In this document: piece by piece, positions 10,621-62,846 of the stretch
Layout of the letters: each line of letters starts with the position of its first letter
Position numbering within the stretch: the stretch's first letter is position 1
Assembly: GCA_038064075.1 (NCBI GenBank)
Contig: JBBTTU010000004.1
Coordinates: 647 to 64,646, forward strand
Source: Patescibacteria group bacterium
GTDB lineage: Bacteria > Patescibacteriota > Minisyncoccia > HO2-45-28
Length of the DNA stretch: 64,000 nucleotides
Direction of reading: 5' to 3'
The notes under the pieces: model-generated
Seen by the model: the letters and a program-made list of their open reading frames with translations, nothing else
Told to the model about the DNA's origin: nothing
Databases searched by the model: none
Program-made: the position numbers and the translations under genes

Positions 10621-12564
10621 ATGGCCATTCAAAAAGAAAGAGTTTATTTTGCCAGAACAAATTTTAGAGGTCAGAATAAAATTTTCGGCATTAAATTGCC
10701 GGATCGCCGGCAGCATATGTATGTTGTCGGGAAAACCGGCACCGGCAAAACCAACCTGATCAAAAATATAGCCATTCAGGATATAAACTCCGGCCGGGGC
10801 CTCTGCGTTGTTGATCCTCACGGCGAGCTAGTTGAAGAACTTTTGGAAAAAATTCCGAAAGAACGCTCCAAAGACGTGATTTATTTCAATCCGGCCGACT
10901 CGGAACATCCTCTGGGTTTCAACGTCTTGGAAGTTCCCGATAAAAAATACAAGCATTTGATTGCGCAGGGCCTGATCGGAATTTTTACCAAAATCTGGGC
11001 CAATGTCTGGTCGGCCCGGATGGAGTATATTTTAAATAACTGCATTTTGGCCTTGATTGAAACGCCGGGCACCACGCTCTTGGGCATTCAGCGCATTTTG
11101 ACCGACAAAGATTACCGCCAGCGGATTTTAGCCAATGTAACCGACCCGGTCGTGCGCGCTTTTTGGATGAATGAATATGAAGTCTGGCAGGATCGCTTCC
11201 GCAACGAAGCCATTGTTCCGATTCAAAATAAAGTCGGCCAGTTCGTCGCGACATCTTTGATCCGAAACATTGTCGGCCAGGCCAAATCAAGCTTTGAAGT
11301 TTTTGAGTTGATGAACGAGGGCAAAATTCTTCTGGTCAATATTTCCAAAGGCCGGATTGGCGAGGAAAATTCAATGCTTTTGGGAGCCATGCTTATCACT
11401 AAAATTCAGCTGGCGGCCATGGAACGGGTCCGCATCCCCGAAAATGAAAGGCGCGATTTTTATCTTTATGTTGACGAGTTCCAGAATTTCGCCACCGAAT
11501 CGTTTGCTTCCATTCTTTCCGAAGCCAGAAAATACCGGCTTAATCTGATTATTTCGCATCAATACACCGGCCAGCTGATTAGCCAGACGACAACGACGAT
11601 CCGCGACGCCGTTTTCGGCAATGTCGGCACGATGATTTTTTTCAGAGTCGGAGCGACCGACGCCGAGTTTCTGGAAAAAGAAATCACGCCCGAATTCGTC
11701 ATAGACGACCTCGTCAATCTGCCCAATTACAATATTTATCTCAAATTAATGGTTGACGGCATATCAACCCGGCCTTTTTCGGCCGTTACCATACCGCCTT
11801 TGGCCACGACCGCCGATATGGCCGATCCGAAAATTATCGTTGATAATTCCCGAAAGCAATATGCCCGATCGGCAAACAAGGTTGAAGGAGATATCAAGCG
11901 CTGGAGTTCTTCTTTGCCGGGAACGACTGAAGCCGAAGAAGAATTTTTCACCGAAGGCGGATCCGCCTATGGCGGAAAAGTTAAAACCGGCGACAAATTT
12001 GAAAGTCCGTGCTGGATTTGCAAAAAAACCGCGTCAGTTCCTTTCAAGCCCGACGGCCAAAGGCCGGTCTATTGCTCGGAGTGTTTGAAAAAGATTGAAG
12101 CCGGCCAACTGCGGCCTTTGCGTCCGCTGCCGACGGCCGGAAAAGAGCGCGAAGAATTCGGCGGAGAACTCGGTGAATTGGGCATTGAGTTTAATTTGCC
12201 TCAAAATAAGGTAAAGACATTCTCAAAGCCGGGCTTCAAAGCTCCGCATCCGGAATTTTCGCCGAAAGCCCGGCCCGCGCCCGGAAAAATTATGCCGAAT
12301 ATCAGAGAGGGCGAATTGGTGGTCAAGGATGTTAAGCCAAAACGCGCGCTTTCTTTGCAAGATTTGAAGCCGCGGGCAGAAAAATCAAAACCAAAAGAAT
12401 CTAATTTGGATGAATTGCGCCGGGTTCTGAAAGAATCGCTTGCCAAAGAAGAAAAACCGATGGCCGAAACTCAAAAAAATCAGAATGCGGCGCCGTCTTC
12501 ACAAAAGGAGCCGTCTTCCAAATCAGGCGTGCTTAAACCCGGCGAGTCAATAAAATTTGAATAA
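10621..12564 (+). CDS. Paralogous soluble VirD4/TraG-type P-loop ATPase with a C-terminal CxxC...CxxC zinc ribbon and a long K/P/E-rich disordered tail.
   Basis: 'HMYVVGKTGTGKTNLI', 'GLCVVDPHGELV', 'DFYLYVDEFQNF', 'IISHQYTGQLI'. The core is collinear with the 9118 protein. Zinc ribbon 'CWICKKTASVPFKPDGQRPVYCSEC'. The tail is rich in K, P and E. Confidence 0.7.
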   Translation: MAIQKERVYFARTNFRGQNKIFGIKLPDRRQHMYVVGKTGTGKTNLIKNIAIQDINSGRGLCVVDPHGELVEELLEKIPKERSKDVIYFNPADSEHPLGFNVLEVPDKKYKHLIAQGLIGIFTKIWANVWSARMEYILNNCILALIETPGTTLLGIQRILTDKDYRQRILANVTDPVVRAFWMNEYEVWQDRFRNEAIVPIQNKVGQFVATSLIRNIVGQAKSSFEVFELMNEGKILLVNISKGRIGEENSMLLGAMLITKIQLAAMERVRIPENERRDFYLYVDEFQNFATESFASILSEARKYRLNLIISHQYTGQLISQTTTTIRDAVFGNVGTMIFFRVGATDAEFLEKEITPEFVIDDLVNLPNYNIYLKLMVDGISTRPFSAVTIPPLATTADMADPKIIVDNSRKQYARSANKVEGDIKRWSSSLPGTTEAEEEFFTEGGSAYGGKVKTGDKFESPCWICKKTASVPFKPDGQRPVYCSECLKKIEAGQLRPLRPLPTAGKEREEFGGELGELGIEFNLPQNKVKTFSKPGFKAPHPEFSPKARPAPGKIMPNIREGELVVKDVKPKRALSLQDLKPRAEKSKPKESNLDELRRVLKESLAKEEKPMAETQKNQNAAPSSQKEPSSKSGVLKPGESIKFE

Positions 12565-15017: not shown

Positions 15018-16163
15018 ATGAAAACTTCTAACGGGATGAAAATTTTAATTGCCACCCCTCTTTTTCCGCCGGATATAGGAGGACCGGCTACTTACAGCAA
15101 GGCGCTTTCGGAAGAATTGTCCAAGCGCGGGATAAGCGTTGATGTTCTGTCTTTCGGGGTTGTTCGCGGATTGCCCAAAATTATTCGCCATTTGGCCTAT
15201 TTCTGGAAAGTTTTTTGGAAGAGCCGGAAAGCCGATTTAATTTTCTCCCAGGATCCGGCATCAGTCGGTTTTCCTGCTTGCCTTGCCGCGCTGCTTTTAA
15301 GGAAGCGTTTCGCGCTGAAAATTGTGGGAGATTACGCTTGGGAGCAGGGAATGAATCGTTTTGGAGTCAAGGATTTGCTTGATAATTTTTTGGAAAAAAA
15401 ATACGGCCGGCCGGTTGAATTTTTGCGCCGGATTGAAAAATTTGTCGCAATCAGGGCCGATATTATTATTGTTCCCAGCCGCTATTTAAAAAGCGTTGTT
15501 GAAAAATGGGGCGTTGATTCTAAAAAAATAAATGTAATTTATAACGCGGTTCATATTCCGGAAATTTTTCAGAGTAAAGAGGAAATAAGAAAAAATCTCG
15601 GACTTTCCGGAAAAATTTTGGTGAGTATCGGCCGGCTTGTTCCGTGGAAAGGATTTGGAATGTTGATTGAACTTATGCCTGAAATCTCAAAAAAATATCC
15701 GGCCGCTAAACTGCTGATCATCGGTTCGGGGCCCGAAGAGGATGAGCTAAAAGCTATAAGCTATAAGCCTTCGTCCCGAACTCAGGCCGAGGGGTTAAAA
15801 GCTGGCGTAAAATTTTTAGGCGGTTTATCTCATGAACTGGTTTTGAAATATTTGAAAGCCGCCGACATTTTTTTGCTTAATACCGGCTATGAGGGTTTTT
15901 CGCACCAAATTTTGGAAGCCATGGCTTCGGGCGCGCCGGTTATAAGCACGCCGGCAGGAGGCAACAGAGAAATTCTGGAAGACCGCAAAAATACGTTGGT
16001 CGCCGCATATAATGACAGGAACGTTTGGCTCCGAGCCATTTTAGAACTTTTGAGCGATCAGAATCTGGCCCAAAATTTATCCAAAAACGCCCGCCAAGGT
16101 GTTTTAAAATTCGCCGGTCAAAATATGATTGAAGAAACAATTAAAATTTTGCAGTCGTTATGA
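15018..16163 (+). CDS. Glycosyltransferase family 4.
   Basis: 'NTGYEGFSHQILEAMASGAPVISTPAGGNREIL' GT4 motif. N-terminal 'ILIATPLFPPDIGGPATY'. Confidence 0.75.
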   Translation: MKTSNGMKILIATPLFPPDIGGPATYSKALSEELSKRGISVDVLSFGVVRGLPKIIRHLAYFWKVFWKSRKADLIFSQDPASVGFPACLAALLLRKRFALKIVGDYAWEQGMNRFGVKDLLDNFLEKKYGRPVEFLRRIEKFVAIRADIIIVPSRYLKSVVEKWGVDSKKINVIYNAVHIPEIFQSKEEIRKNLGLSGKILVSIGRLVPWKGFGMLIELMPEISKKYPAAKLLIIGSGPEEDELKAISYKPSSRTQAEGLKAGVKFLGGLSHELVLKYLKAADIFLLNTGYEGFSHQILEAMASGAPVISTPAGGNREILEDRKNTLVAAYNDRNVWLRAILELLSDQNLAQNLSKNARQGVLKFAGQNMIEETIKILQSL

Positions 16164-17269
16164 AAATCCTAATGTTTTCGGCCGATCCGATGATTTTAGA
16201 TGCCCGGTCAGCAGCGGCCAAAAGAATGATTGAGTATGGAAAAAGAATTGAAAAACTTGATATTTTGGTTTTAACTTCTCATTTGGACGCCGGACTTAAA
16301 AATGAGATTGAATTGGCAGAAAATGCCAGAATATATGCTTTAACCGGCAAATTTTCGCGTTTTTTTAAGGCATTTTTTAAGGCTCGGAGCTTGCTGAAGC
16401 GGATCAAATACGATTTACTCGTGGCGCAGGATGTTGAGCATGCTTTTCTTTGCTGGCTTTTGTCACTTCGTTTCAAAACGGCGTGGCAGATGCAGATTCA
16501 CGCCGATATTTTCAGTCTGTATTTCGCGAGGCACTCATTTTTTAACAAAATGCGAATATGGTTTGCTAAATTTTTAATCCCGCGGGCTTCTTGCATACGT
16601 GTTGTATCGCAACGTATAAAAAAATCAATTCTAAAAGCTCAGAGTTTACAGCTAAAAGCTAATATCGAAGTTTTGCCTATTTTAGCTTCGCCAATAAACA
16701 CAGATGCTCAGCCAAAGCGTTTTCCTGAATTTGATAAAAATATTTTAATGGTTTCGCGTCTGACCAGTGAAAAAAATATCGGGCTTGCGATTGACGCTAT
16801 GGCCGAAGTTGTAAAAAAGCATCCTAAAACCGGTTTGGTTATTGTCGGCGACGGACCGGAGTTTAAAAATATCAAAAATCAAATATCAAATCTCAAAATT
16901 GATGAAAATGTGCGGTTGGAAGGTTGGCGGGAAAATATTGCTTCATACTACAAAGGCTCGGATATTTTTATTTTGACGAGTTGGTACGAGGGTTGGGGCA
17001 TGAGCGCGGTTGAGGCGATGCGTTATGGCGCGGCTGTCGTTATGACCGATGTCGGTTTGGCTGGAGAGTTGATTGAAGATGGAAAAAGCGGTTTGATCGT
17101 GCCGGTGGGCGATAAAAACGCGCTTGCCGCCGCAATATTAAGGCTTTTGGAAAATGATAGTTTCCGCCGAGATTTGATTGAAGAAGCGGCAAAAAAAACC
17201 GGAGAATTGTTTTCGGTTGAAGAATATTACCAAAAAATTATTGATAGTTGGAGCAGGTGCGTCGGCTAA
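16160..17269 (+). CDS. Glycosyltransferase family 4.
   Basis: 'LTSWYEGWGMSAVEAMRYGAAVVMTDVGLAGELIEDGKSGLIVP'. The start overlaps the upstream stop by 4 nt. Confidence 0.75.
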   Translation: MKILMFSADPMILDARSAAAKRMIEYGKRIEKLDILVLTSHLDAGLKNEIELAENARIYALTGKFSRFFKAFFKARSLLKRIKYDLLVAQDVEHAFLCWLLSLRFKTAWQMQIHADIFSLYFARHSFFNKMRIWFAKFLIPRASCIRVVSQRIKKSILKAQSLQLKANIEVLPILASPINTDAQPKRFPEFDKNILMVSRLTSEKNIGLAIDAMAEVVKKHPKTGLVIVGDGPEFKNIKNQISNLKIDENVRLEGWRENIASYYKGSDIFILTSWYEGWGMSAVEAMRYGAAVVMTDVGLAGELIEDGKSGLIVPVGDKNALAAAILRLLENDSFRRDLIEEAAKKTGELFSVEEYYQKIIDSWSRCVG

Positions 17270-17317
17270 AACCCTTAATTTAAGCTATTTTTGTCAGCAG
17301 AGTTTACAATTATATTC

Positions 17318-18343
17318 ATGAATTTATTAATTATTACCCAAAAAGTTGATAGAAATGACCCGATTCTGGGGTTTTTTCACCGCTGGCTTGAAGAGTTTGC
17401 CAAAAACGCCGAAAAATTGACTGTAATTTGCCTTGAAAAAGGCGAATATAACTTACCTGAAAATGTTAATATTTTATCGCTTGGCAAAGAAAACGGAAAA
17501 TCGCGCATAAAATATTTGCGGCGATTTTATAAATATATTTGGAGAGAAAGAAACAATTACAACGCTGTTTTTGCGCACATGAATCCGGAATACATTATTT
17601 TAGGCGGATTGGTTTGGAAAATCATGGGCAAAAAAATCGCGTTTTGGTATGTGCATAAAGCCGTGAATCTGAAATTGAAAATTGCCGAAAAACTGGCTGA
17701 CAAAATTTTCACGGCATCGCGCGAAAGCTTCAGATTGCCCTCAAAAAAAGTTCAAATAACAGGACACGGAATAGATATAGATAAATTTTCAATTTTCAAT
17801 TTTCAATTTTCAAAAAAAATTCGTATTGTTACGGCCGGCAGGATCGCGCCGGTTAAAAATCTGGATATTTTGATTGAAGCCGCTGAAATTTTAAAGAATA
17901 AAGGAGTTGATTTTCAAATTAAAATCGCGGGAAGCCCGATTATTGAGGCCGATAAAATTTATTTCGAAAAATTAAAATCAGAGATTCGACAAAAAAATCT
18001 GGAAAACTTTGTTTTTTTTGCCGGCCCGATTCCATATTCCCAAATTCAGGATTTTTACCGTTCCGGCGACATTTTCGTCAATTTGAGCGAAACCGGAAGC
18101 GTTGACAAAGCGGTGCTTGAAGCCATGGCCTGCGGCCTTTCAATCGCGACTTCCAATCAGGCTTTTAAAAATATTCTGCCTCATAAATATTTTTTGGAAG
18201 AAAAAAACCCCGAAGCGCTTGCGCAAAAACTGAGTGAGTTGTCAGCCGAAAAACGTCCTGATTTTAAGCTGCGTGAAATTGCGCTGAAAGAACACAGCTT
18301 GCAAAGTTTGATTCCAAAGATAATCAAAGAACTTGAAAGCTGA
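17318..18343 (+). CDS. Glycosyltransferase family 4. It contains an internal heptanucleotide simple-sequence repeat.
   Basis: 'LSETGSVDKAVLEAMACGLSIATSN' GT4 C-terminal domain. The ATG at 17318 is preferred over the TTG at 17291. Confidence 0.65.
   Translation: MNLLIITQKVDRNDPILGFFHRWLEEFAKNAEKLTVICLEKGEYNLPENVNILSLGKENGKSRIKYLRRFYKYIWRERNNYNAVFAHMNPEYIILGGLVWKIMGKKIAFWYVHKAVNLKLKIAEKLADKIFTASRESFRLPSKKVQITGHGIDIDKFSIFNFQFSKKIRIVTAGRIAPVKNLDILIEAAEILKNKGVDFQIKIAGSPIIEADKIYFEKLKSEIRQKNLENFVFFAGPIPYSQIQDFYRSGDIFVNLSETGSVDKAVLEAMACGLSIATSNQAFKNILPHKYFLEEKNPEALAQKLSELSAEKRPDFKLREIALKEHSLQSLIPKIIKELES
17784..17819 (+). repeat. Simple-sequence repeat: (AATTTTC)x4 immediately followed by an A8 homopolymer, inside the GT4 coding sequence.
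   Basis: Direct reading: aattttc at 17784-17790, 17791-17797, 17798-17804 and 17805-17811, then aaaaaaaa at 17812-17819. It encodes 'FSIFNFQFSKK'. The 7-bp unit is not a multiple of 3. Confidence 0.9.
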
Positions 18344-18355: not shown

Positions 18356-19690
18356 ATGTTTTCAGGTTTTATCAAAAGAGAACGAGCGATTTTAACTGTT
18401 ATTTTTTTGGTTTTTATCGCAAGCGCGGCATACGCTTTTTATTATCGCATCAGGCCGTCGGTTGACGCCGGAGTTTATGACCAAACAGCGGTTAATATTG
18501 CTCAAGGCTACGGCTTCAGGTTTGATCGGTCCTTGCCGATAGCCGAAGACTCAATAATTACTTTTCAGGGCCCGATTTATCAATACTTTCTGGCCGGCAT
18601 TTATCTGATTTTTGGACATCATTATGAGGCGGTCTGGCTGATTCAAGCGTTATTGAGGGCTTTTACGGCTTTAATTTTATATTTGACAGCCGTTAATATT
18701 TTTGGCCCGGAGGGCAGGCGGATCGGCTGGATTTCAGCCGCTATTTTCGGTTTTCATCCCGATCTGATTGAAATCGGAGCGATGCTTATGACCGAAACAT
18801 TTTTTATATTTTTGTCGGTGCTCGCGGTTTATGTATTCGTTATTTTATATAAAAATCGGTCTTATCTAAATTCTTTTTTTTTAGGACTTTTTTTTGGTCT
18901 GGCCGTTCTCGGCCGTTCAAGCGTCGGAATTTTTCTTTTGCCTTTCGGATTTTATTTTATTTCCCGCAAAGAGTACGCGAAATTTGTTCTATTTTTAGTG
19001 ACGCTTATTTTAGTAATGACTCCGTGGACTATAAGAAACTACAAAGTTTACGGCGAGTTTATTCCGACTATGGCCAACTTCGGCTATAATTTTTGGGTCG
19101 GCAATCACGAGGGCGGGGACGGCGAAGGCGGAAATACGCCGGAACTGGCCGCGGCCCAGAAAGAATACGGCTATATCGGAGCCAATTATTATGCCGCCAG
19201 TCAATTTAAAAAATTCGTCGCGGATCATCCTCTTCAATATATAAAATTTACAATTTCACGAACTGTAAAATATTTCAGTTTCATGCGCCCGATGGGATTT
19301 TGGTTTTATCAGCGGGGGTTGGGACAATTTATTTTTGTCGCCGGTTCCGTATTAGGTTCATTGATTTTGTTTTGGACCGGTTTTGCCGGAATTTTTATCT
19401 GGTTTAAAAAAGAAAAAGAAAACAGACTCCTCGGTTATTTTTTCAGCTTCGTTTTTTTCAGCGTTTTATCGCTGGTTCTGATTTTGTATGAAACCCGTTA
19501 TCGTTTGCCGGTTTATCCGTTTTCGGCTTTATTTTCCGGTTTGGCTTTAAGCCGCCTATATTTTGCGCCAAAAGAATATTTCCGATATTTCGTTGCCGCC
19601 GGAATTGCTATTTTATTCCTTGCCGCCGCCAGTGTTGCCATGGATTATGAAAAAATATTTCAGAAATTCAAACAAATTTTTGAAACTTAA
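18356..19690 (+). CDS. Polytopic GT-C glycosyltransferase, PMT_2/GT39/ArnT-like (polyprenyl-phosphate-sugar dependent).
   Basis: At least 10 TM helices. The loop-1 motif 'DAGVYDQTAVNIAQGYGF' (D..xY...A.N...G.G) is shared with the 22192, 24230 and 46168 proteins. Confidence 0.6.
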   Translation: MFSGFIKRERAILTVIFLVFIASAAYAFYYRIRPSVDAGVYDQTAVNIAQGYGFRFDRSLPIAEDSIITFQGPIYQYFLAGIYLIFGHHYEAVWLIQALLRAFTALILYLTAVNIFGPEGRRIGWISAAIFGFHPDLIEIGAMLMTETFFIFLSVLAVYVFVILYKNRSYLNSFFLGLFFGLAVLGRSSVGIFLLPFGFYFISRKEYAKFVLFLVTLILVMTPWTIRNYKVYGEFIPTMANFGYNFWVGNHEGGDGEGGNTPELAAAQKEYGYIGANYYAASQFKKFVADHPLQYIKFTISRTVKYFSFMRPMGFWFYQRGLGQFIFVAGSVLGSLILFWTGFAGIFIWFKKEKENRLLGYFFSFVFFSVLSLVLILYETRYRLPVYPFSALFSGLALSRLYFAPKEYFRYFVAAGIAILFLAAASVAMDYEKIFQKFKQIFET

Positions 19691-28459: not shown

Positions 28460-28466
28460 ATAATTA

Positions 28467-37663: not shown

Positions 37664-37668
37664 CAATT

Positions 37669-54164: not shown

Positions 54165-54188
54165 ATAGTGTTAATTTTCTAACGGGAT

Positions 54189-55304
54189 TTATTTTTTGAA
54201 ATAGCGGGCAACGGTATCGGTAACGTGCTTCAATTCATTGTTTGTAAGATGGACAAATGAAGGCAGCCATAATCCGCGCCGGCCGCAACGCTCCGCAATC
54301 GGGAAGTTTTTGCCTGCATACTGCTCCCGATAAATTTTTTGAGTGTTTATGGCCGGATAAAAATTACGCGTTCCGATGCCCTTGTCTTTAAGAAATCCGG
54401 CAAGCCCGTCGCGATCCTGGACAAAAATATCAATAAACCACGGCGTGGTTATATTTAGGTCAGTCGGGATAAATTCAATTTCAGGGAGAGAAGAAAGCCG
54501 GTCATAATAGTAAGCGTAGATTTCTTTTTTGCGGCGGATTCTCTCGGACAATTTTTTGAATTGTTCCAGACCGATGACCGCTAAAATGTTTGAAAATTTA
54601 AAATTCCAGCCCGGATAATCGTGAATATCGCTGGATGTCTGGCCAAAATTTTTTAAAAGGTTGGTTTTTTTATACAATTCTTCGCTGTCTGTCACTAAAG
54701 CGCCTCCCTGGCCGGTGGTGATAATTTTAAATAAACTGAAAGAAAAACTGCCGATGTCTCCAAAAGTTCCCAAATGTTTTTTATTCAAGCGGTTTCCTTT
54801 CCAATAAGACCCAAGCGCCTGAGCCGCATCTTCAATCAGAAACAGGTTATATTTTTTTGTGAATTCCACAATTTGATCCATATTGCCCGAGCGGCCGTTG
54901 AGCGGCACGTACATCACGGCTTTCGTTTTCGGCGTAACGGCCTGGGCGGCTTTTTTAAGATCCATGCAGAGCGTGTTTGCTTCTATATCAACGAGCACCG
55001 GCTCTACGCCGATCAAAGCGCAGGCGTTTGCCGTCGCAATCATGGTGGTTGCCGGCACCAAAACCTCCTCTCCCGGTTTGATATCCAGCGCGAGAAGAGC
55101 GAGCGTAAGAGTTATTGTGCCGTTTACGGAGAAGATGCCGTAACGCGCGCCGGTGAAATTCGCCAGTTCTTCTTCCAGTTTATTGGTTGAAGAAATATCC
55201 CAGCGATTATGCTTCATAAAGTCAAAAAGCGCGCGGCCTTCCGCCTCGTCAAAGTGAGGCTCCATTTGGGGAATTTCTTTCTTAAAAAATCTTTTAAGAT
55301 TCAT
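54189..55304 (-). CDS. DegT/DnrJ/EryC1/StrS-family PLP-dependent sugar aminotransferase (FdtB/Per/ColD-like).
   Basis: 'GTFGDIGSFSFSLFKIITTGQGGALVT' (PLP lysine context) and 'FIEDAAQALGS'. Confidence 0.75.
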   Translation of the reverse strand: MNLKRFFKKEIPQMEPHFDEAEGRALFDFMKHNRWDISSTNKLEEELANFTGARYGIFSVNGTITLTLALLALDIKPGEEVLVPATTMIATANACALIGVEPVLVDIEANTLCMDLKKAAQAVTPKTKAVMYVPLNGRSGNMDQIVEFTKKYNLFLIEDAAQALGSYWKGNRLNKKHLGTFGDIGSFSFSLFKIITTGQGGALVTDSEELYKKTNLLKNFGQTSSDIHDYPGWNFKFSNILAVIGLEQFKKLSERIRRKKEIYAYYYDRLSSLPEIEFIPTDLNITTPWFIDIFVQDRDGLAGFLKDKGIGTRNFYPAINTQKIYREQYAGKNFPIAERCGRRGLWLPSFVHLTNNELKHVTDTVARYFKK

Positions 55305-55698
55305 ATAACCGCTTTATCACCGCTTTATCATCGTGAAACGGACCGCTTTTTGCTTCAAAAAGCTCGGAGTCTTTAATCATGGTGATGCCGTACCCGCCGT
55401 TTAAAATAATAAACGCGTCCCCCGGGTTTAAATAAATATATTTGATGAATTCAAAAGCCGGCCTCGGACCGTGAATATCCAAACGCACCTTTCCTTTTCT
55501 TAAAAAAAGGCATTCCTGAACATATTTTATTGTAAGATTGCTGGAATTATGATAATGTGGATCTAAGCGGGTGCCTTTTGGGTGTTTGATTGTCAAAAGC
55601 TGCAAATGCTCTTTTGCGTGAGTTAATGGTTTTGTTTTTTCGCCCATTTTTGTTATTTTTATGCCGATGAGTTTGCCTTTATAAAAAATCTTGTTCAT
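55294..55698 (-). CDS. WxcM/FdtA-like cupin, a putative sugar-nucleotide 3,4-ketoisomerase.
   Basis: 134 aa. 'HPKGTRLDPHYHNSSNLTIKYVQECLFLRKGKVRLDI' carries the cupin His pair. It overlaps and precedes the DegT aminotransferase, as in fdtA-fdtB pairs. Confidence 0.5.
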   Translation of the reverse strand: MNKIFYKGKLIGIKITKMGEKTKPLTHAKEHLQLLTIKHPKGTRLDPHYHNSSNLTIKYVQECLFLRKGKVRLDIHGPRPAFEFIKYIYLNPGDAFIILNGGYGITMIKDSELFEAKSGPFHDDKAVIKRLYES

Positions 55699-55712
55699 AA
55701 CGGCATAATATC

Positions 55713-56987
55713 ATGAAAATTTATTTTGTCACATCAAAAATGAAGAATATCAACACGGCCGCCGGTTCTGTTATTATGCTTAGATTTATTATGCAAGAAC
55801 TGATCAAGCTCGGAAATGATGTAGCTTGCGTCACGGTTTTTTCCCATTTCAACGACCTCACGGAGACAACTCCGTTTAAATTAATTGAAGAACGCATTTC
55901 ATCCCTTCGTCTGTTTCCCATTCATTGGAATGTTTTTAAGATTTTGAAAAAGTACGAAAATGACTGCGACATTTTTTATATAGACGGTCAGTTTATGTAC
56001 GGCGGAGGGCTATACCGTTTGCTTGGCGGCAAAAGGCCGGTTTTTGCCAATCTCATCCGCCCTCCTCTGGTTATGGACGAATATGTTTCTCCTCTTTTTC
56101 AAAGACAGACGGGATCCGGGAAATTTTCTCTTATGAAATTTTTAACAGGCATTAAGAAAAAAATACGCTGGTTCATTGACAGATTTATGCTTGTGCGCCT
56201 TGCTTCCCGCGTGGATTTTGTCTCCGCTATTAACCCTATTCTTAATCGGGTGCATTATAAATTTGGGCTGAAACCGGCGGCGCAAGCTCTGTTGATCGGC
56301 GATGCTTATCCTATGGTTGAAACCATGGAAAAAGAAGGGATAGATGAATGGTCATACCGAAATCGGGTTGGAAAAAACGAAAAAGTCATTCTTTATTTTT
56401 CCGGACGCATGGCTGCGGGAAAAGGATATGATTTGCTGCTGGCCGCGTTTACAAAGGTTAAAAATAAAGAAAAATTTAAACTTGTTTTAGGGGGATCCGG
56501 GCCCGAAGAAGACGAAGTGCGCCGGATGATAAAAGATTTCAGTTTAGAAAAATATGTGGAGCTTCCGGGCTGGCTTTCCAAAAAACAATTTTTTGAATAT
56601 TTGAAACAGGCGGATATCTATGTTTTTTCCAGGTGGGGAGCCTATTTTACTTCCGCTATCGCCTTAAACGAAGCCATGGTATTCGGGCTTCCGTCAATTG
56701 TGCCTTCTGGAACCGGTCTTTCATGGACCGCGGGCAAGAGCGCCGTCACATTTGAGCCTGAAAATGCCGACGACCTTGCGCGTAAAATTGAGCTTTTGGG
56801 AGAGGATGCCGAACTGCGAAAAGAACTTTCGCGCCGCTGCTATGAAAGATTAAAAGAGCCCGATATTGATCCGCGCCAGGTTGTTATCGCTATGAATGTT
56901 TTGATGAAAAGCTTGGTTGTAAGCCCGAAAAACAAATATCCTTTGGAGCGATTTCTTAACGGTTATTTTGGAGAAAGGGTTGACTGA
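55713..56987 (+). CDS. Glycosyltransferase family 4.
   Basis: 'ILYFSGRMAAGKGYDLLLAAF' and 'IVPSGTGLSWTAGKSAVTFEPEN'. Weaker than the other GT4 genes. Confidence 0.5.
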   Translation: MKIYFVTSKMKNINTAAGSVIMLRFIMQELIKLGNDVACVTVFSHFNDLTETTPFKLIEERISSLRLFPIHWNVFKILKKYENDCDIFYIDGQFMYGGGLYRLLGGKRPVFANLIRPPLVMDEYVSPLFQRQTGSGKFSLMKFLTGIKKKIRWFIDRFMLVRLASRVDFVSAINPILNRVHYKFGLKPAAQALLIGDAYPMVETMEKEGIDEWSYRNRVGKNEKVILYFSGRMAAGKGYDLLLAAFTKVKNKEKFKLVLGGSGPEEDEVRRMIKDFSLEKYVELPGWLSKKQFFEYLKQADIYVFSRWGAYFTSAIALNEAMVFGLPSIVPSGTGLSWTAGKSAVTFEPENADDLARKIELLGEDAELRKELSRRCYERLKEPDIDPRQVVIAMNVLMKSLVVSPKNKYPLERFLNGYFGERVD

Positions 56988-57017
56988 TGGCACTCTTCTT
57001 GTTTATTTTTTAATAAT

Positions 57018-58007
57018 ATGGGCAAAACAGCTTTCATTACCGGAATAACCGGACAAGACGGTTCATACTTAGCCGAATTTTTAATTAACAAAGGTTATGT
57101 TGTTCATGGTTTGATCAGGAGGACTTCGTTTTTTAACTTTTCCAGAATTGAACATTTTCTCAAGCGGCATAACACAAGCGTTTTTCTCCATTATGGAGAT
57201 ATGACCGATCCAGTTTCTCTAGCCCTTATCCTCGCGAAAATCCGTCCCGAAGAGATATATAACCTTGCGGCTCAATCGGATGTCCGCGTGTCTTTTGAAA
57301 CTCCTCTTTATACCGCGCAGGCTTCGGGAGTCGGGGTCTTGAATCTTTTAGAGGCAGTGAAGGCGTTAGGGCTTAAATCAAAAATATACCAGGCTTCCAC
57401 TTCCGAACTCTTCTCGGGCGACCCGTCAGAATCTCCTCAAAACGAACTGACGCCGTTTAAACCCAAAAGTCCTTACGGAGTCGCCAAGCTTTACGGATAT
57501 GAAATCGCGCGAATTTACAGGGAGTCGTACGGAATGTTTGTTTCAAACGGAATACTTTTCAACCACGAATCGGAACGCAGAGGCGAGGAGTTCGTAACAA
57601 AAAAAATAACGCTTGGCGTCAAAAACATACTTTCCGGAAAAGAAAAGCACATAACTCTGGGAAATCTGAATTCGCAAAGAGATTGGGGATATGCTCCGGA
57701 ATATGTGGAGAGCATGTGGCTTATGCTTCAGCATGAAAAGCCGGATGATTTTATAATTGCCACCGGGGAGACGCACTCGGTCAAAGAATTTTTAGATGAG
57801 GCCTGCGGCCTTGTCGGGCTGGATCCGGAGAAAGTGGTAAAAATTGACCAAAAAATCATAAGACCCAACGAAGTCAATTATCTTTGCGGCGACTGCTCTA
57901 AAGCCAAAAAAATTCTTGGCTGGGAGCCAAAAACAAAGTTTAAAGACATTGTAAAAATAATGCTGAGAGCGGAGCTGCGGGGCTCCGGGATAAAAGTTGA
58001 TTTTTAG
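57018..58007 (+). CDS. gmd: GDP-mannose 4,6-dehydratase.
   Basis: 'AFITGITGQDGSYLAEFLINKGYVVHGLIRRTSFFNFSRIEH', 'YQASTSELFG', 'SPYGVAKLYGYEIARIYRESYGMF'. Highly diagnostic for Gmd. Confidence 0.85.
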   Translation: MGKTAFITGITGQDGSYLAEFLINKGYVVHGLIRRTSFFNFSRIEHFLKRHNTSVFLHYGDMTDPVSLALILAKIRPEEIYNLAAQSDVRVSFETPLYTAQASGVGVLNLLEAVKALGLKSKIYQASTSELFSGDPSESPQNELTPFKPKSPYGVAKLYGYEIARIYRESYGMFVSNGILFNHESERRGEEFVTKKITLGVKNILSGKEKHITLGNLNSQRDWGYAPEYVESMWLMLQHEKPDDFIIATGETHSVKEFLDEACGLVGLDPEKVVKIDQKIIRPNEVNYLCGDCSKAKKILGWEPKTKFKDIVKIMLRAELRGSGIKVDF

Positions 58008-58780
58008 ACCGGTCTTTTTGTTTGGCGAAAAAGGGCTTTAACGGGGTTTTTGATCGGCTGGGGCAGGGAGGCAAGCGCCATATAAATTTTGTGGTTTAAA
58101 TATAAAAGAGCGCTTTGAATTCGGGTCAGGCGGTTTTTTATTTTGTCCAGAATTGTTATTTTTTCTGATTTTTGTATCGCGGCCGTGGTCCCCCGGATTT
58201 TTATAATTTTGAAATTGCCGGAGCCGAAAATAAAATCTTTCATAAATTTTCTCACCGGCTTCCATCCGTGCAGCGGAATACCTTCAAGAATTCCCGAAAC
58301 TGACGGCACGGCGTTGTGCAGGGCATAAATGCCGCCGCTGGCAAGACAGCGCGACCACTCAAAAAAATCCCTTCTGGTTAATTCATAGTCGTAGTAATTG
58401 GAATCAACAAAAATCAACCCTATCGGCTTGGTCCAGTTTTTGACCGCTTCAAACGAAGTCATAACCACCGGCTCAATAATATTTTCAAGTCCGGCGTTCT
58501 TGATGTTCCGCTTGAATTCTTCAAATGTGTTTAAGGCCCCGTAAGTCTTTTGGTCCGGGCTTCCGGTGTGCGGGTCAACGGCGTAAACTTTAGCGCCCCA
58601 TCCGTTTTTTGAACCAAGACCGAGGCAGATTGTTGATTTGCCTTTCCAGGAACCTAATTCCACTATCACTCCATTTTTGCAATTCTTCGCCGCCTCATAA
58701 AGAAATATCGCCTCTTTTGTTGAAACGCATCCCGGTATGCCTGATATTTTTTGCAGCAGGTCTAAATGTTCTTGTTTCAT
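58004..58780 (-). CDS. Class I SAM-dependent methyltransferase (Methyltransf_24 / TylF-MycF-like O-methyltransferase fold).
   Basis: 'GVIVELGSWKGKSTICLG' and 'GLIFVDSNYYDYELTRRDFFEWSRCLASGGIYALHN'. Confidence 0.55.
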   Translation of the reverse strand: MKQEHLDLLQKISGIPGCVSTKEAIFLYEAAKNCKNGVIVELGSWKGKSTICLGLGSKNGWGAKVYAVDPHTGSPDQKTYGALNTFEEFKRNIKNAGLENIIEPVVMTSFEAVKNWTKPIGLIFVDSNYYDYELTRRDFFEWSRCLASGGIYALHNAVPSVSGILEGIPLHGWKPVRKFMKDFIFGSGNFKIIKIRGTTAAIQKSEKITILDKIKNRLTRIQSALLYLNHKIYMALASLPQPIKNPVKALFRQTKRPV

Positions 58781-60306
58781 GCCGATTCCTGAATTGATAA
58801 AGCGGCTAGATTCAGCTTTTTAGCCAAGTAATCAACAAAAGGCTCAACGACCTTTTGTTTTTTCTCCATATTTGATCCGCCTTCAATATCCCAGATTTGA
58901 ACCAAATCCAAATCGGCGCTTTCTTTGTAAATGGCCGCGATTAAATTAATAAGCGCCGGCTCGCTGTAATTAAAATTTTCAAGCTGCTCTTTGACGATGT
59001 GCGGCAGATCTTCTATTGCCGCGCATTTTTTTGCCATGGGCAAGGCGTTATAAAACACATTGCCGAAAGTTACCGCCGGTTTTTTAAGCAAAACAGCTTC
59101 CCAGCCGGCCGTGCTGTTTATGGTTATTATAAGCTTCGCGTTTTTTGTTATCGGGAAGCTTTCCAGTGAAGGATCCACAAGTCTGACATTCGGTATTTTT
59201 TTTAATTCTTTGTAAAAACGCCGGGTGCGGTATCCAAACATGGCCGGATGCTCTTTAACATATAATTTGCAGGCAATCGGCAGAGAGCGGGCGATTTGTT
59301 TTATCAGCCACAGCTGGTCGGTATAAAACGGCGCGAAAAGAGAAATGGACATTTCCGGCTCAAGATGCATAGGGAAGAAAGCAAAATCCTCCTCCAAATC
59401 AGGCGCGTCGTATAAATCGTTAAAACCGATCAAGACCCTTAATTTTCTTTTGATCTTGTCAATGAAATAGTGCCACGGCTTTATTACCTCAAAATCGTCT
59501 TTATGCGGGTTGATCAGGTAGTCATAAATTATTTTAAAGTTCCAAACAAGCGAGCGGGCGATATTTTCCGGCCGCAGGAACTTAAATTGGTTTTTTCTGC
59601 CAATCGGCCTTTTTTTGGGCGAATCGGTCGTAGAATGAGGGCGCGGGTTCGCCCTGAACTCTTCTAAAAACGCTTGAGCCATTTTTATTTCTTTGATTTC
59701 GGGCATCGGATTTTTTTGTAAATCAGAAAACATATCGCTGATATAACTTAGATTTCCGTGGTTTGTCGTAAGCGAATATCTCGCTCCCACGCGCGTAGTT
59801 TGGATAAATAAAGTTTTTATGCCCATTTTTTTAGCCGCATGATACATAAGAAGCGTCGCGATATCAACAATGACTGACAAAAGGACAAAATCAGGTTTTT
59901 GTCTTTCCAAGAATTTGATCATGGCGCGCGCTTTAACCTGAAGGATTCTCATCATTTCTTCGTGGGAATATTTCGGCCGATCATAAGGATATTCCCTGAC
60001 CAGCTGGCCGCGCCGGACTACGCGGTCAATTTCAATATAAGGCCACAGGTTGGGAATTCCGTATTCTTTTTCAAGCCAGCGCAAATAATTGAGATCGAGC
60101 GGCTCGTCTTTGTATTGTTTATGGATATCCTCGTCCAGCAGAAGTTCGGCATAGTTTATTTCTTTTTGGGTTTTTAGAAAATTCAGGCTGTCTCTTTGAT
60201 AGACATAGCCGCAAAAATCTTGGACGCCGTATTTTTTCCGCAAAACCGCGGCCATGGCGTGGCCGACATAAGCAAACCTTCGTTGCAATAATAAGCAGGC
60301 TTTCAT
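58777..60306 (-). CDS. Putative polysaccharide biosynthesis GT-B-like protein (KpsS/Capsule_synth-like or TagF-like). Family uncertain.
   Basis: 'FFPMHLEPEMSI', 'LYVKEHPAMFG', 'LIITINSTAGWEAVLLKKPAVTFGNVFY' resemble the HP-containing core of capsule-synthesis transferases. Assigned from memory only. Confidence 0.3.
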   Translation of the reverse strand: MKACLLLQRRFAYVGHAMAAVLRKKYGVQDFCGYVYQRDSLNFLKTQKEINYAELLLDEDIHKQYKDEPLDLNYLRWLEKEYGIPNLWPYIEIDRVVRRGQLVREYPYDRPKYSHEEMMRILQVKARAMIKFLERQKPDFVLLSVIVDIATLLMYHAAKKMGIKTLFIQTTRVGARYSLTTNHGNLSYISDMFSDLQKNPMPEIKEIKMAQAFLEEFRANPRPHSTTDSPKKRPIGRKNQFKFLRPENIARSLVWNFKIIYDYLINPHKDDFEVIKPWHYFIDKIKRKLRVLIGFNDLYDAPDLEEDFAFFPMHLEPEMSISLFAPFYTDQLWLIKQIARSLPIACKLYVKEHPAMFGYRTRRFYKELKKIPNVRLVDPSLESFPITKNAKLIITINSTAGWEAVLLKKPAVTFGNVFYNALPMAKKCAAIEDLPHIVKEQLENFNYSEPALINLIAAIYKESADLDLVQIWDIEGGSNMEKKQKVVEPFVDYLAKKLNLAALSIQESA

Positions 60307-62846
60307 TGATTTATTTTCAGAAGCGTCTCAATTCTTTTATTCAGCGCGATCGCTCCTTGTTCCATAAGTTTTGGATAGCGGAATTCAACGATATTTTCTC
60401 CGGGAGGAACAAGAATTGCTTGATAAAGATAGTTGGCGGTATAGATCGGGGCACTTTTGGCGTTGACGGTCGCCTGCCAGAAATCAGGGAACCGGCTTTC
60501 GCTAAAAATCAAAAAACGGTGATTTTCAGTTTTGGTTTTGAGCCGCAAGTTTCCGGCGGTGTAAAGTTGGAGCTCTATTTTGTCGCTCGGGCTTGATTTT
60601 GTTGAAAGCGCTTCGTCGTTTAAGGTTAATGGTTCCAGAACAGTTGTTTTTTTAAAGTCCTGAACTTGGTCAAGAGTTTTCAGTATTTCAGCGTCATTTC
60701 CTTCAGCCCACAAAACTTTTTCAGAAAAATACCAGCGGGGCATAAAATGTTTATTTTCATAAATATAGACCGGAATATTCGTATTGGCGGCTAGAGTCGC
60801 AAATATCGGCCGCGATTCATTTTTCAGCATGAGCGGAGTCAGGATATATCGGATATTAAGCGCGCCTAAAAGGCGCATGTTTTTTTCATCAGAAAAAGCT
60901 TTTAGGTAATCATCAAGGGAAACAGTGTCTTTGTATGATGTCGCTATGGATACATCCTGCCGCATCGCCGTAAAATATAAAGCCATTAATCGTTTAAGCG
61001 CCAATGTCTGGGTGTTTCGGAAAGCGTCAAAATCAAACATTGCGTGGATATTGTATTCCATCATTTCCCGGCTGAACCACCGCCGTTTTTCGCTGTCATA
61101 GATAGTGTCAATTCCGTATTCTTTTGATAATCTCGCCAGAAATTGATAAGGCGTATAAAGAAAAATTCTGTAAGGAACAAAACTCGCGGAGTTTTCGGAA
61201 TCAAGCGGCAATTTGCGGCTGGTGTAGGGATTGATTGAATGCAGGAATTTGGCGGTTTCCGGTTCTGTTTTTAAATACGAGGCCGGCGGTCCGTTGAATA
61301 TATCGGTCCAAAATAAAGCGCTGCCGAGGAGCGTGATAATCACGGCTGATTTTCTCCATTTTTGATACGGCACGAGCTCATATTTGCCGAGAGTCAAATA
61401 TAAGAGAGCAATCAGCCATAAAAAAGAAGAAAGCAAAATCCATTTGTTTTTTAAAGAAAAATTATCCACCAAGCTGTTTGCCATTTCAGTTATAACTTGA
61501 CGGTAATACGCCGCGGGCCGGCTGAATATTCTGTCCGGGACGTTTTGATAGCGCGCGACGCCGTATGAAGCGAGCGACAATTTAATCCGGCTGTCAAAGA
61601 GAGCGATGAACCCGGCCGCAAACACAGCCAGAATAAAAAGAGACCATAATGCGATTATCGCGCGTTTTGAAAGTCGGTGCTGGAAAAAATCGCGCAAGTT
61701 GTCAAAGCCGTATCCGGCAAGAATTGCAAGAGAAAAAACAATTACAAAAGACCATTTCCAGTATCCGCCGAACCATTTGAGCACCGGAAGCCGGTGAAAC
61801 AGCCAGAATAGCGGCGAATGGCTTACGGTCATCAAAATGGAGCCGGCCGCAAGGCCGATAAAAAACGGCAGGTATCGGTTTCCTTTGATATTTTTTATGA
61901 AAAGAACCGAAAGCGCCAGCAGAAGAGGCAGCGTTCCGAAAAAAAGCAGATAAGGTTCGTTTCCGAGGGGAAAGAACGGCAGCAGGTCGCCGTAAAGAAC
62001 GGAAATGCGGGGATTGAACATATAGAGGAAATGGGCAAGGGTGGTCGGCATGTAGGCCGCGCCGTCGCCCGTGCCGCCGGCTCTTTCCGAATATGAAATA
62101 AAATGCAGCACTGACAAGAACCACGGCGAAAGAATAAGTGCGCTTAAAGGAATCGCGCCGAAAAATATAAGAGGATATCGCCAGCTGAAATTTTCAGAAT
62201 TTCTTTTTTGGAAAATCAAATATATCGCGAAAAATCCAAGCGCGGTCAAAGCGTAGACAATCATTTCCGACCAGCCGCCGATCCAGGCGTAAAACATAAG
62301 GGCGAACCATATCCAGAACCAGCGCAGGCGTCCCTCAAAAATTTTCAAAAGACACAAAAAAGAAAGAGGCAAAAATGGCATTAAAGCCGCGATAGTGGTT
62401 ATGCCGACGTATCTTACGACTACGCCGCTGAAGGAATAAGACACGGCCGCGATCAAACTCGCTGTCCGGCTCAAATTCAGCGTTCTTGCCAAGGCGTATA
62501 AACCTAATCCGTTTGCGACGAAAAACGCGGCAATCATGATGTTATTGGCAAAAAACGGCGAGAGATATTTGAGAATAAAAATAAAAACAGGATTTAAAAA
62601 AGCGTCCAGCGTCAGGTTAATCGGATATCCGGAATTATAGGCCGGCCACCAGTTTGGCAGCATTTTCAAGTCATATACGAAGCGCGCCATCTCCTTGAAA
62701 TACATATAATGAAATAAACTGCCTCCTCCCATTGACGGCAATTTTCCAAGCAGGAACGGCCAAAATAAAAATAATGATCCCGCCGACAGAACAAAAACCG
62801 CGAAAGCCCCGCCGTAAAAACGTTTAAACTTAAAAAGTTTATTCAT
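60303..62846 (-). CDS. YfhO-like large polytopic membrane protein (putative glycosyltransferase for envelope polymer glycosylation).
   Basis: 847 aa. N-terminal and mid-protein TM clusters ('FAVFVLSAGSLFLFWPFLLG', 'YFKEMARFVYDLKMLPNWWPAYNSGYPINL') separated by and followed by soluble domains. Size and topology are typical of the YfhO family. Confidence 0.45.
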   Translation of the reverse strand: MNKLFKFKRFYGGAFAVFVLSAGSLFLFWPFLLGKLPSMGGGSLFHYMYFKEMARFVYDLKMLPNWWPAYNSGYPINLTLDAFLNPVFIFILKYLSPFFANNIMIAAFFVANGLGLYALARTLNLSRTASLIAAVSYSFSGVVVRYVGITTIAALMPFLPLSFLCLLKIFEGRLRWFWIWFALMFYAWIGGWSEMIVYALTALGFFAIYLIFQKRNSENFSWRYPLIFFGAIPLSALILSPWFLSVLHFISYSERAGGTGDGAAYMPTTLAHFLYMFNPRISVLYGDLLPFFPLGNEPYLLFFGTLPLLLALSVLFIKNIKGNRYLPFFIGLAAGSILMTVSHSPLFWLFHRLPVLKWFGGYWKWSFVIVFSLAILAGYGFDNLRDFFQHRLSKRAIIALWSLFILAVFAAGFIALFDSRIKLSLASYGVARYQNVPDRIFSRPAAYYRQVITEMANSLVDNFSLKNKWILLSSFLWLIALLYLTLGKYELVPYQKWRKSAVIITLLGSALFWTDIFNGPPASYLKTEPETAKFLHSINPYTSRKLPLDSENSASFVPYRIFLYTPYQFLARLSKEYGIDTIYDSEKRRWFSREMMEYNIHAMFDFDAFRNTQTLALKRLMALYFTAMRQDVSIATSYKDTVSLDDYLKAFSDEKNMRLLGALNIRYILTPLMLKNESRPIFATLAANTNIPVYIYENKHFMPRWYFSEKVLWAEGNDAEILKTLDQVQDFKKTTVLEPLTLNDEALSTKSSPSDKIELQLYTAGNLRLKTKTENHRFLIFSESRFPDFWQATVNAKSAPIYTANYLYQAILVPPGENIVEFRYPKLMEQGAIALNKRIETLLKINQ

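Follow-up and report, generated by a model that had tools for sequence, protein, structure and literature searches.

The window analyzed here, a 64,000-nucleotide stretch of contig JBBTTU010000004.1 (assembly GCA_038064075.1) from a Patescibacteria group bacterium, carries a large island of glycosylation genes. The island is probably a composite surface-glycan biosynthesis locus of a groundwater Patescibacteria (Parcubacteria-type) bacterium; approximately 50 kb of it lie in the window, and it extends for no less than another 10 kb beyond. The reading that accounts best for its gene content, and in which we place fairly good confidence, is a multi-component transmembrane glycosylation of a surface acceptor. 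The range 12480-62846 holds eight glycosyltransferases (GTs) of the GT-C type from four sequence families, together with three GT2 enzymes, a set of GT4 enzymes, a Wzx flippase and many sugar-tailoring enzymes. Gene content was derived from an open reading frame (ORF) map and from Pfam and NCBIfam scans of the window proteins, which are annotated as hypothetical at NCBI; proteins are designated below by the first coordinate of their genes (Table 1). An earlier note on this DNA had listed the gene content of this range, and nearly every item was reproduced. Its core idea, namely that polyprenyl-phosphate donors from GT2 enzymes are used by extracytoplasmic GT-C enzymes beside a Wzx pathway and tailoring genes, is supported by the family and fold assignments, whereas its analogy to GT39 and Ppm1/Pmt, its description of the locus as exceptional and its island boundary at 62846 were unsupported or overstated.

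GT-C Enzymes of the Island

Judged by their domain matches, four of the GT-C enzymes (18356, 22192, 24230 and 46168) are PMT_2-superfamily proteins, all of which score above the Pfam cut-off of PMT_2 (PF13231, 26.1 bits). The loop-1 motif D-x-x-(E/D/V)-Y-x3-A-x-N-x3-G, which had been described as common to the four, is exact in only two of them (18356, from D37, and 22192, at D46); the alanine is replaced by serine in 24230, and in both 24230 and 46168 the final glycine lies one residue off. Invariant throughout the four proteins are the aspartate, tyrosine and asparagine of this motif (D43, Y47 and N53 in 24230; the aspartate is D40 in 46168), a downstream P-D-x(4)-F-x-x-P-x-Y block, in which the spacing of the proline and aspartate differs in 18356, and an M-x-E. 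The invariant aspartate lies a few residues past the first hydrophobic transmembrane (TM) segment, and the basic N-termini of the proteins place it outside the membrane. The label “GT39-like” and the comparison with Ppm1/Pmt could not be maintained. PF02366, the PMT/GT39 model, matched none of the four at E <= 0.01, PF13231 being the only match, and a profile built from them found no solved PMT or ArnT by sequence; therefore, these proteins should not be called GT39 or Pmt. Compared with the Asp-Glu motif of Pmt, loop 1 keeps the aspartate, followed at position +3 by V, E, E or D, and contains no adjacent D-E.

Three further polytopic proteins (41877, its paralog 44522, and 51126), previously listed as uncharacterized candidates, match no Pfam or NCBIfam model and are assigned to GT-C by predicted structure. 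The predicted structures of the 41877 and 51126 families superpose on solved enzymes of the ALG/PMT/ArnT/STT3/Aft class, the 51126 model (pLDDT 88.4) matching solved GT-C enzymes. Both models resemble yeast Pmt4 and Pmt2, with AftA and AftB as strong structural matches, and AglB and STT3B are also among the matches of 41877. In these polytopic proteins, acidic residues are conserved within the first loop outside the membrane: loop 1 of the 41877 family contains D38-E39 followed by invariant tryptophan residues, and that of the 51126 family contains an invariant N46, a nearly invariant E47 and an invariant D59. For 51126, 258 homologs were detected; the best 120 of these 258 share 45-61% identity, come from many Parcubacteria candidate phyla and have no Pfam domain. 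Kinship at the sequence level among the GT-C families was rejected, as hhalign gave a probability of 57% at best (41877 versus 51126 families) and values near zero for the rest. The families are therefore kept separate and joined by fold alone. The eighth enzyme, 60303, had been described as YfhO-like; its homologs at 68%, 63% and 45% identity pass the YfhO cut-off (34.3, 29.5 and 36.5 bits), whereas its own score does not, and membership in the YfhO family would follow only from this transitive link.

Predicted Polyprenyl-Phosphate Sugar Synthases

The activity best supported for 23512, 36725 and 47541 is that of a predicted polyprenyl-phosphate sugar synthase, since all three GT2 proteins (PF00535) are nearest to solved polyprenyl-phosphate glycosyl synthases (DPMS, ArnC and GtrB). 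In agreement with the earlier note, which had called 23512 and 47541 soluble and had given 36725 C-terminal TMs, the first two have no hydrophobic segment and 36725 has two C-terminal TM segments. The nearest solved relative of 23512 is DPMS of P. furiosus (5mlz, 1.5e-14), followed by GtrB and ArnC. 47541 matches the AglJ family (1.7e-33) and the catalytic domain of DPMS 5mlz (9.5e-25), then ArnC and GtrB. Both soluble proteins match the AglJ, PgfS and PpgS families as well (PpgS at 9.4e-17 for 47541). The entire 36725 protein, its two C-terminal TM helices among it, can be aligned with solved ArnC (3.8e-49); the next matches are GtrB (sll0501) and P. furiosus DPMS. Against the ArnC model NF007986 it scores 192 bits (1.2e-56), far below the equivalog cut-off of 529, and it is thus an ArnC homolog of the same architecture rather than ArnC itself or an ortholog.

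The reported abutment of GT2 genes with GT39-like genes stands as an abutment of GT2 with GT-C genes: 23512 overlaps 24230 by 8 nt, and 46168 overlaps both 47541 and its other neighbor, 44522, by 4 nt. Overlaps within the same 4-8-nt range also join 50287 to 51126, and 15 nt separate the end of 22192 from the start of 23512.

A Conserved Patescibacteria Module

When species-representative genomes were scanned, the 51126 family turned up at 57 loci, each in a Patescibacteria-type metagenome-assembled genome (MAG), and the neighbors within 6 kb were annotated by BLAST against the window proteins. S-adenosylmethionine (SAM) methyltransferases are the most frequent neighbors (46 of 57 loci), followed by GT2 (39), GT4 (29), DegT (24), C-methyltransferase (22), GDP-mannose 4,6-dehydratase (GMD, 21), Capsule_synth-like (14), cupin (13) and AsnB-type proteins (10). 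The GT2 is of the ArnC-like 36725 type in approximately 22 loci (302-329 aa, 37-67% identity), mostly 1.7-5 kb upstream of the GT-C gene and on the same strand. A recurrent order is observed, consisting of a 29104-like GT4, the GT2, an optional AsnB, one to three methyltransferases and the GT-C, and then optionally a C-methyltransferase, GMD, cupin, GT4 and Capsule_synth-like protein. In L011, the closest relative, and in L015, L032, L045 and L053, GT2, AsnB and three methyltransferases directly precede the 51126-type GT-C; L052 and L057 have the same order with one methyltransferase fewer. Compared with L011, the window has 41877 through 50287 inserted between the methyltransferases and 51126. 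Hence, the ArnC-like GT2, the methyltransferases and the 51126-type GT-C form a conserved Patescibacteria module, which is split in this window. The synteny with L011-type loci also suggests how GT2 and GT-C enzymes pair: 51126 was probably supplied by 36725 as its original donor synthase, and 46168, perhaps together with the 41877 pair, is the more likely partner of 47541.

Other parts of the island recur near this module. The block 52920-58780, with genes for a 6-deoxy, amino or C-methyl sugar, keeps its synteny with 51126-family genes across many genomes, and an ortholog of the C-methyltransferase 20924 (67% identity) adjoins the 51126-type GT-C in L006. Unfused homologs of the GT4 part of 29104 (approximately 44% identity) occur in L005, L007 and L008, and in other Parcubacteria such GT4 genes often lie just upstream of the GT2 of the module. 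Concerning the taxonomy of the compared loci, L023, L031, L042, L046, L048, L049, L055, L058 and L059 are titled “uncultured Gammaproteobacteria bacterium” or “Candidatus Saccharibacteria”, which are probably mislabels of automatic third-party annotation assemblies.

The density of GT-C genes had been called exceptional. However, L005 (a Parcubacteria MAG) contains six GT-C-type genes within 21 kb (two PMT_2 and four 41877-family genes by BLAST) together with five GT4 genes, L011 contains four GT-C-type genes in 14 kb, and three paralogs of the 51126 type occur in L007, every one of them close to a small GT2. As GT-C-rich islands recur in the clade, the term was overstated and the pattern is typical of the clade.

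Proposed Mechanism

The assignments to families and folds, the adjacency of genes and the synteny described above are consistent with the following scheme, which is itself a proposal as to the sugar donors, the sequence of steps, the roles of the flippases and the acceptor. Cytoplasmic enzymes would probably make unusual activated sugars, namely uronic acids and their amides, as well as 6-deoxy, amino, C-methyl and O-methylated sugars, and genes further downstream would contribute nonulosonic acid, and 3′-phosphoadenosine 5′-phosphosulfate (PAPS) for sulfation. The eight GT4-type enzymes and the Capsule_synth-like enzyme (58777) would assemble an oligosaccharide on a polyprenyl carrier on the cytoplasmic side of the membrane, and the Wzx flippase (30871) would export this oligosaccharide. 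The three GT2 enzymes, one ArnC-like and membrane-anchored and two soluble and DPM1-like, are predicted to load polyprenyl-phosphate with single sugars. After flipping, the eight GT-C enzymes would move these sugars onto the exported glycan or another envelope acceptor. In this genome, extra GT-C, GT2 and tailoring genes have been inserted into the conserved 51126 module.

The cytoplasmic and export parts of this scheme correspond to what had been reported for the locus: Pfam recovers eight GT4 enzymes and one further GT-B enzyme (58777), and Pfam and NCBIfam recover the Wzx flippase, the GT4-GtrA fusion and the large tailoring set. In the fusion protein 29104, the GT4 domain precedes a membrane region with a GtrA/DPMS-type TM domain at its end. 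This is the sole GtrA domain, as the window revealed no separate GtrA gene, and instead of acting as a flippase it might serve to hold the GT4 at the lipid carrier.

Several points weigh against this scheme. With the only GtrA domain fused to a GT4, the predicted monosaccharide-lipids have no assigned flippase, and only three GT2 donor synthases face eight GT-C transferases. Among the window ORFs, Pfam revealed no priming phosphoglycosyl transferase of the WecA/MraY or WbaP type, Wzy polymerase, LCP ligase or O-oligosaccharyltransferase, and no main window ORF matched Bac_transf, Glycos_transf_4 (MraY/WecA) or Wzy_C. The priming transferase and Wzy that define a Wzx/Wzy-dependent pathway within a cluster are thus missing from the window, and the Wzx branch is incomplete here. 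The window yielded no identified acceptor. For 24230 the PMT_2 match is only marginal (27.2 versus 26.1 bits), and 60303 itself falls below the YfhO cut-off (15.6 versus 28.5 bits). All functions were deduced from a MAG, and the locus may direct several independent glycans instead of one.

Relation to Known Systems and Alternative Explanations

The closest parallel is the multi-component (formerly three-component) transmembrane glycosylation system, in which a GT-A enzyme makes a C55-P-sugar, a GtrA/Wzx-type flippase moves it across the membrane and a wall polymer receives the sugar through a GT-C enzyme (PMC8035078; PMC5836110). This type is established in Gram-positive bacteria as CsbB/GtcA/YfhO, GtlA/GtlB, CsdAB/CD/EF with CflA and GacI/J/K/L, and variants with a soluble GT-A and a small membrane partner exist, as in GacI with GacJ (PMC8035078; PMC5836110). 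The island shares with these systems GT2 enzymes of the putative C55-P-sugar synthase type and polytopic GT-C enzymes whose acidic motif lies in a loop outside the membrane; it also contains a Wzx gene and a GtrA domain. In the known systems the GT2 gene frequently adjoins the GT-C gene, and several GT2/GT-C pairs per genome are possible; in the island the linkage is seen in the gene overlaps and, across genomes, in the GT2 neighbors of the 51126 family. By analogy with GacJ, the small protein 48254 could be a partner of the soluble GT2 47541. The island differs in carrying eight GT-C and three GT2 genes in one locus instead of one to three dispersed pairs, in having three GT-C proteins from two families that lack their own Pfam or NCBIfam model, in the fusion of its sole GtrA domain to a GT4, and in its host, a Patescibacteria MAG.

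The ArnC/ArnT pathway (GT2 and GT83), which adds aminoarabinose to lipid A, offers a second comparison. Besides the full-length resemblance of 36725 to ArnC, related genomes place tailoring genes between the GT2 and the GT-C, an arrangement reminiscent of ArnD, which acts on a lipid-linked sugar. In contrast, 36725 stays below the ArnC cut-off, and the island has no set of ArnA, ArnB, ArnD, ArnE and ArnF. Candidate phyla radiation (CPR) bacteria are reported to be without lipid A (PMC5220378), and the acceptor must therefore differ from that of ArnT.

Among the alternatives, the one that survives best, possible although we would put it below even, is that the region is a mosaic of independent glycan clusters (e.g., for a secondary cell-wall polysaccharide, a teichoic-acid-like polymer and a nonulosonic-acid or sulfated glycan) that are neighbors only because glycan genes aggregate in small genomes. 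The interruption of the 51126 module by insertions relative to L011 and other loci, the differing gene subsets of related loci, the four unrelated sequence families of the GT-C enzymes and the strand switches at 30871, 33762, 35580, 40302 and 52920-55698 all agree with such a mosaic, and the downstream NeuB/CMP-synthetase and PAPS/sulfotransferase genes form a block of their own. On the other hand, long co-directional runs with 4-8-nt overlaps tie many genes together. A mosaic is also compatible with multi-component transmembrane glycosylation, as it concerns the number of products and not the mechanism.

Protein O-glycosylation, which the earlier note had also raised and in which the PMT_2 enzymes would act like actinobacterial Pmt and transfer single sugars onto Ser/Thr of secreted proteins (the 1561-aa protein described below, pilins or an S-layer), appears doubtful. 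The PMT_2 matches, the resemblance of the GT2 proteins to PgfS of the S. mutans protein-glycosylation system and the presence of a secreted Ser/Thr-rich protein approximately 11.6 kb upstream of the island speak for it. The actinobacterial Ppm1/Pmt O-mannosylation system (GT2 and GT39) resembles the island in having a GT2 gene beside a PMT-superfamily GT-C gene, and the 41877 and 51126 models resemble yeast Pmt4 and Pmt2. However, the PMT_2 proteins of the island match only the broad PMT_2 model, are shorter (434-458 aa) and retrieved neither PF02366 nor a solved PMT. Moreover, the surrounding GT4, Wzx and tailoring genes are typical of polysaccharide clusters, and unrelated genes part the surface protein from the island.

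Still less probable in our estimate is a mycobacterial-style assembly line, in which the eight GT-C enzymes would build or extend a polymer outside the membrane, as Aft/Emb and Pim/Mpt do for arabinogalactan and lipoarabinomannan, with the GT4-made, Wzx-exported unit as primer. The ratio of eight GT-C to three GT2 enzymes, the tandem paralogs 41877 and 44522, the lack of a Wzy polymerase among the window ORFs, the runs of three to six GT-C paralogs in related genomes and the AftA and AftB matches would fit it. The island further resembles the mycobacterial PpgS/Rv3779 and Aft/Emb systems in its small PpgS-like GT2 proteins and in the predicted use of polyprenyl-phosphate sugars outside the membrane by multiple GT-C paralogs. 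Against it, processive or sequential action has no direct evidence, and sequence does not distinguish decoration from polymerization. The GT-C enzymes of the island (434-593 aa for the PMT_2, 41877 and 51126 types) lack the large C-terminal carbohydrate-binding domains of Emb and AftD and have no sequence-level relation to Aft/Emb, no DprE1/DprE2-type epimerase is present, and the many GT4 enzymes argue that most linkages are made in the cytoplasm. An epimerization of a lipid-linked sugar like that of DprE1/DprE2 by the local flavoprotein 48663 and the short-chain dehydrogenase/reductase (SDR) 50287, an idea that came from an Amino_oxidase and SDR pair beside a GT2/GT-C pair in L007 and from the location of 48663 and 50287 between GT2 47541 and GT-C 51126, was rejected because 48663 is GMC-like and not VAO-type and homologs of the two occur in none and two of the 57 loci, and it is retained only as a low-probability local elaboration.

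Tailoring Genes, Extent and Flanks of the Island

The tailoring set comprises two AsnB-type amidotransferases, two NDP-sugar C-methyltransferases, seven SAM methyltransferases, an NDP-sugar 6-dehydrogenase, a GFO/IDH/MocA oxidoreductase, a DegT aminotransferase, three SDR epimerase/dehydratases, a cupin-like protein and GMD (Table 1). The 33762 protein contains His/Asp motifs (GGHDPFH and HNADR) that by eye suggest an HD-type phosphohydrolase, and its homologs occur in 2 of 57 related loci.

Table 1. Features of the island and its edge, by position in the window; bit scores are followed by the cut-off where one applies.
Position	Strand	Predicted product	Length (aa)	Basis or remark
12480-13706	-	GT4	408	Glycos_transf_1 110.9 bits, Glyco_transf_4 79.6 bits
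13737-14927	+	GT4, first of four consecutive		Glycos_transf_1 150.6 bits; no TM segments
15018-16163	+	GT4, second of four		Glycos_transf_1 135.7 bits; no TM segments
16160-17269	+	GT4, third of four		Glycos_transf_1 150.0 bits; no TM segments
17291-18343	+	GT4, fourth of four		Glycos_transf_1 80.7 bits; no TM segments
18356-19690	+	PMT_2-type GT-C	444	PMT_2 51.9 bits; ~8+ hydrophobic segments
19690-20883	+	Divergent GT-B, counted as GT4-type	397	Glyco_trans_1_4 only, 44.2 bits; weak match to PEP-CTERM stp1 glycosyltransferase family
20924-22135	+	NDP-sugar C-methyltransferase	403	Methyltransf_14 167.8 bits, Methyltransf_13 65.2 bits
22192-23496	+	PMT_2-type GT-C	434	PMT_2 36.6 bits
23512-24237	+	Soluble GT2, polyprenyl-phosphate sugar synthase-like	241	Glycos_transf_2 73.4 bits
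24230-25603	+	PMT_2-type GT-C	457	PMT_2 27.2 bits (marginal); BLASTP to 22192 8.6e-18
25581-27446	+	AsnB-type glutamine amidotransferase	621	Asn_synthase 256.8 bits; TIGR01536 443 bits (267)
27443-28459	+	SDR epimerase/dehydratase		Pfam
28467-29081	+	SAM methyltransferase		Pfam
29104-30930	+	GT4-GtrA fusion	608	Glycos_transf_1 78.7 bits (residues 190-356); GtrA_DPMS_TM 51.3 bits (residues 474-602)
30871-32373	-	Wzx/MOP-family flippase	500	Polysacc_synt_3 228.5 bits; MOP flippase NF007773 186 bits
32442-33725	+	NDP-sugar 6-dehydrogenase		TIGR03026 274 bits (190)
33762-34478	-	Protein of 238 aa	238	No Pfam or NCBIfam match
34569-35579	+	SDR		Pfam/NCBIfam
35580-36656	-	GFO/IDH/MocA oxidoreductase		Pfam/NCBIfam
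36725-37663	+	ArnC/GtrB-like membrane-anchored GT2	312	Full-length ArnC match
37660-39525	+	AsnB-type amidotransferase		Pfam/NCBIfam
39541-40305	+	SAM methyltransferase		Pfam/NCBIfam
40302-41024	-	SAM methyltransferase		Pfam/NCBIfam
41038-41880	+	SAM methyltransferase		Pfam/NCBIfam
41877-43553	+	GT-C fold GT, own Pfam model lacking	558	Predicted structure
43562-44512	+	SAM methyltransferase	316	Methyltransf_11 71.4 bits
44522-46171	+	GT-C, paralog of 41877	549	51% identity to 41877, full length
46168-47544	+	PMT_2-type GT-C	458	PMT_2 37.7 bits
47541-48245	+	Soluble GT2, DPM1/AglJ-like	234	Glycos_transf_2 114.9 bits
48254-48679	+	Protein with hydrophobic C-terminus	141	
48663-50294	+	Divergent GMC-like flavoprotein		Weak matches to cellobiose dehydrogenase, pyranose oxidase
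50287-51129	+	Atypical SDR	280	Pfam/NCBIfam
51126-52907	+	GT-C fold GT, second Pfam-less Patescibacteria-wide family	593	Predicted structure
52920-54164	-	C-methyltransferase		Pfam/NCBIfam
54189-55304	-	DegT aminotransferase		Pfam/NCBIfam
55294-55698	-	Cupin-like protein		Pfam/NCBIfam
55713-56987	+	GT4		Strong Glycos_transf_1 match
57018-58007	+	GDP-mannose 4,6-dehydratase (GMD)		445.5 bits (equivalog 415)
58004-58780	-	Methyltransf_24		Pfam/NCBIfam
58777-60306	-	Capsule_synth (KpsC/KpsS)-like transferase	509	PF05159 41 bits (20)
60303-62846	-	Divergent YfhO-family GT-C	847	YfhO (PF09586) 15.6 bits (28.5)
62963-64000	+	PK-like/ATP-sulfurylase/APS-kinase fusion (PAPS synthesis)	903	N-terminus in window, ORF runs beyond; PUA_2 domain also present

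The island does not end at 62846, as had been proposed, since sulfation and nonulosonic-acid genes continue past the window end. In L003 (1-9884), the fusion at 62963 is followed by a sulfotransferase and by HisF-like and HisH-like proteins with a GIY-YIG ORF between them, and further on by a CTP_transf_3 protein resembling CMP-sugar synthetases, a GFO oxidoreductase, NeuB and a NeuC-like 2-epimerase; the genes from 62963 onward suggest a sulfated glycan containing nonulosonic acid. L003 shares 99.99% identity with the window, the apparent difference being one of gene calling at the contig end only, and the idea of strain variation of the island was dropped. The window sequence is identical to part of Hain_H51_01um_R3_101 (ENA ERZ1292643) and of the 180-kb contig CAYINQ010000001.1 in GCA_964364865.1, where it begins near position 79,894. 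The sample name points to the 0.1-μm fraction of Hainich groundwater (well H51), which fits an ultra-small CPR bacterium. GC content is 0.38-0.47 across the whole window, and no tRNA genes or Rfam matches were found in it, either within or flanking the island.

Upstream, positions 1-850 (+) encode the C-terminus of a 1561-aa protein, the full gene of which lies at 5032-9717 in L010. This protein has an N-terminal hydrophobic segment and a DUF5667 domain, and past residue 1000 three of four 100-residue windows contain 26-38% Ser+Thr and the fourth 20%. The Ser/Thr-rich region is rich in cysteine and carries most of the N-x-S/T sequons. From these features the protein is a candidate surface glycoprotein, with unrelated genes (MurJ, Sua5, a sigma-like protein and TrwB-like ATPases) between it and the island. 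Directly upstream of MurJ, 1134-3473 (+) encodes a 779-aa protein with approximately 13 TM segments and C-terminal TPR repeats, which belongs to a family of more than 2000 cluster representatives with an invariant G-x-G-P-x-x-F motif. This motif resembles those of O-antigen-ligase/Wzy_C-type proteins, and the protein may be the polymerase or ligase that was missed among the island genes. Of 36 Pfam families matched, the 25 with the most matches are all TPR/ARM-type repeats, and none of these 25 covered its membrane part; its profile found no solved structure, hhalign showed no relation to the 41877 family, and none of the folds considered for it (Wzy, ligase or GT-C) was assigned. Between the MurJ, Sua5 and sigma-like genes and the island, 7003-12564 (+) encodes a pair of paralogous TrwB/TraG-like ATPases, one with a treble-clef zinc finger, as well as a DUF8128 protein and a small protein with a single TM segment; these genes are probably unrelated to glycosylation.

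Significance for the Patescibacteria Cell Envelope

The mechanism is of a known kind, and the advance is in annotation and scope rather than in concept. Parcubacteria have already been noted as carrying many GTs (PMC5220378), and no paper linking Patescibacteria with GT-C enzymes was found in the literature searched. What is new is the GT-C assignment of two unannotated families, the conserved 51126 module and the scale of the locus, in which eight GT-C and three GT2 enzymes occur in an island reaching sulfation and nonulosonic-acid genes. A fold and a likely activity can thereby be given to two families now annotated as hypothetical proteins, one of which, the 51126 family, occurs with conserved synteny in 57 species-representative genomes. 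These families and the synteny of 51126 provide concrete targets for heterologous biochemistry, glycoproteomics and cryo-electron tomography.

The composition and assembly of the CPR/Patescibacteria envelope are an acknowledged open question, and the cell surface presumably mediates episymbiotic attachment. The present locus predicts that a groundwater Parcubacterium commits at least 50 kb to surface glycans and relies heavily on lipid-phosphate-sugar donors and GT-C enzymes. More speculatively, and on balance improbably, the 51126-type GT-C, the ArnC-like GT2, AsnB in some loci and one to three methyltransferases might constitute a lineage-wide pathway that tailors a sugar on polyprenyl-phosphate and then links it to a central part of the envelope (for example peptidoglycan, type IV pilin or a teichoic-acid-like polymer), with the extra GT-C paralogs, including the 41877 family, forming an extracytoplasmic assembly line similar to Aft/Emb. 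If this were true, GT-C chemistry would be a main architect of the CPR cell envelope.

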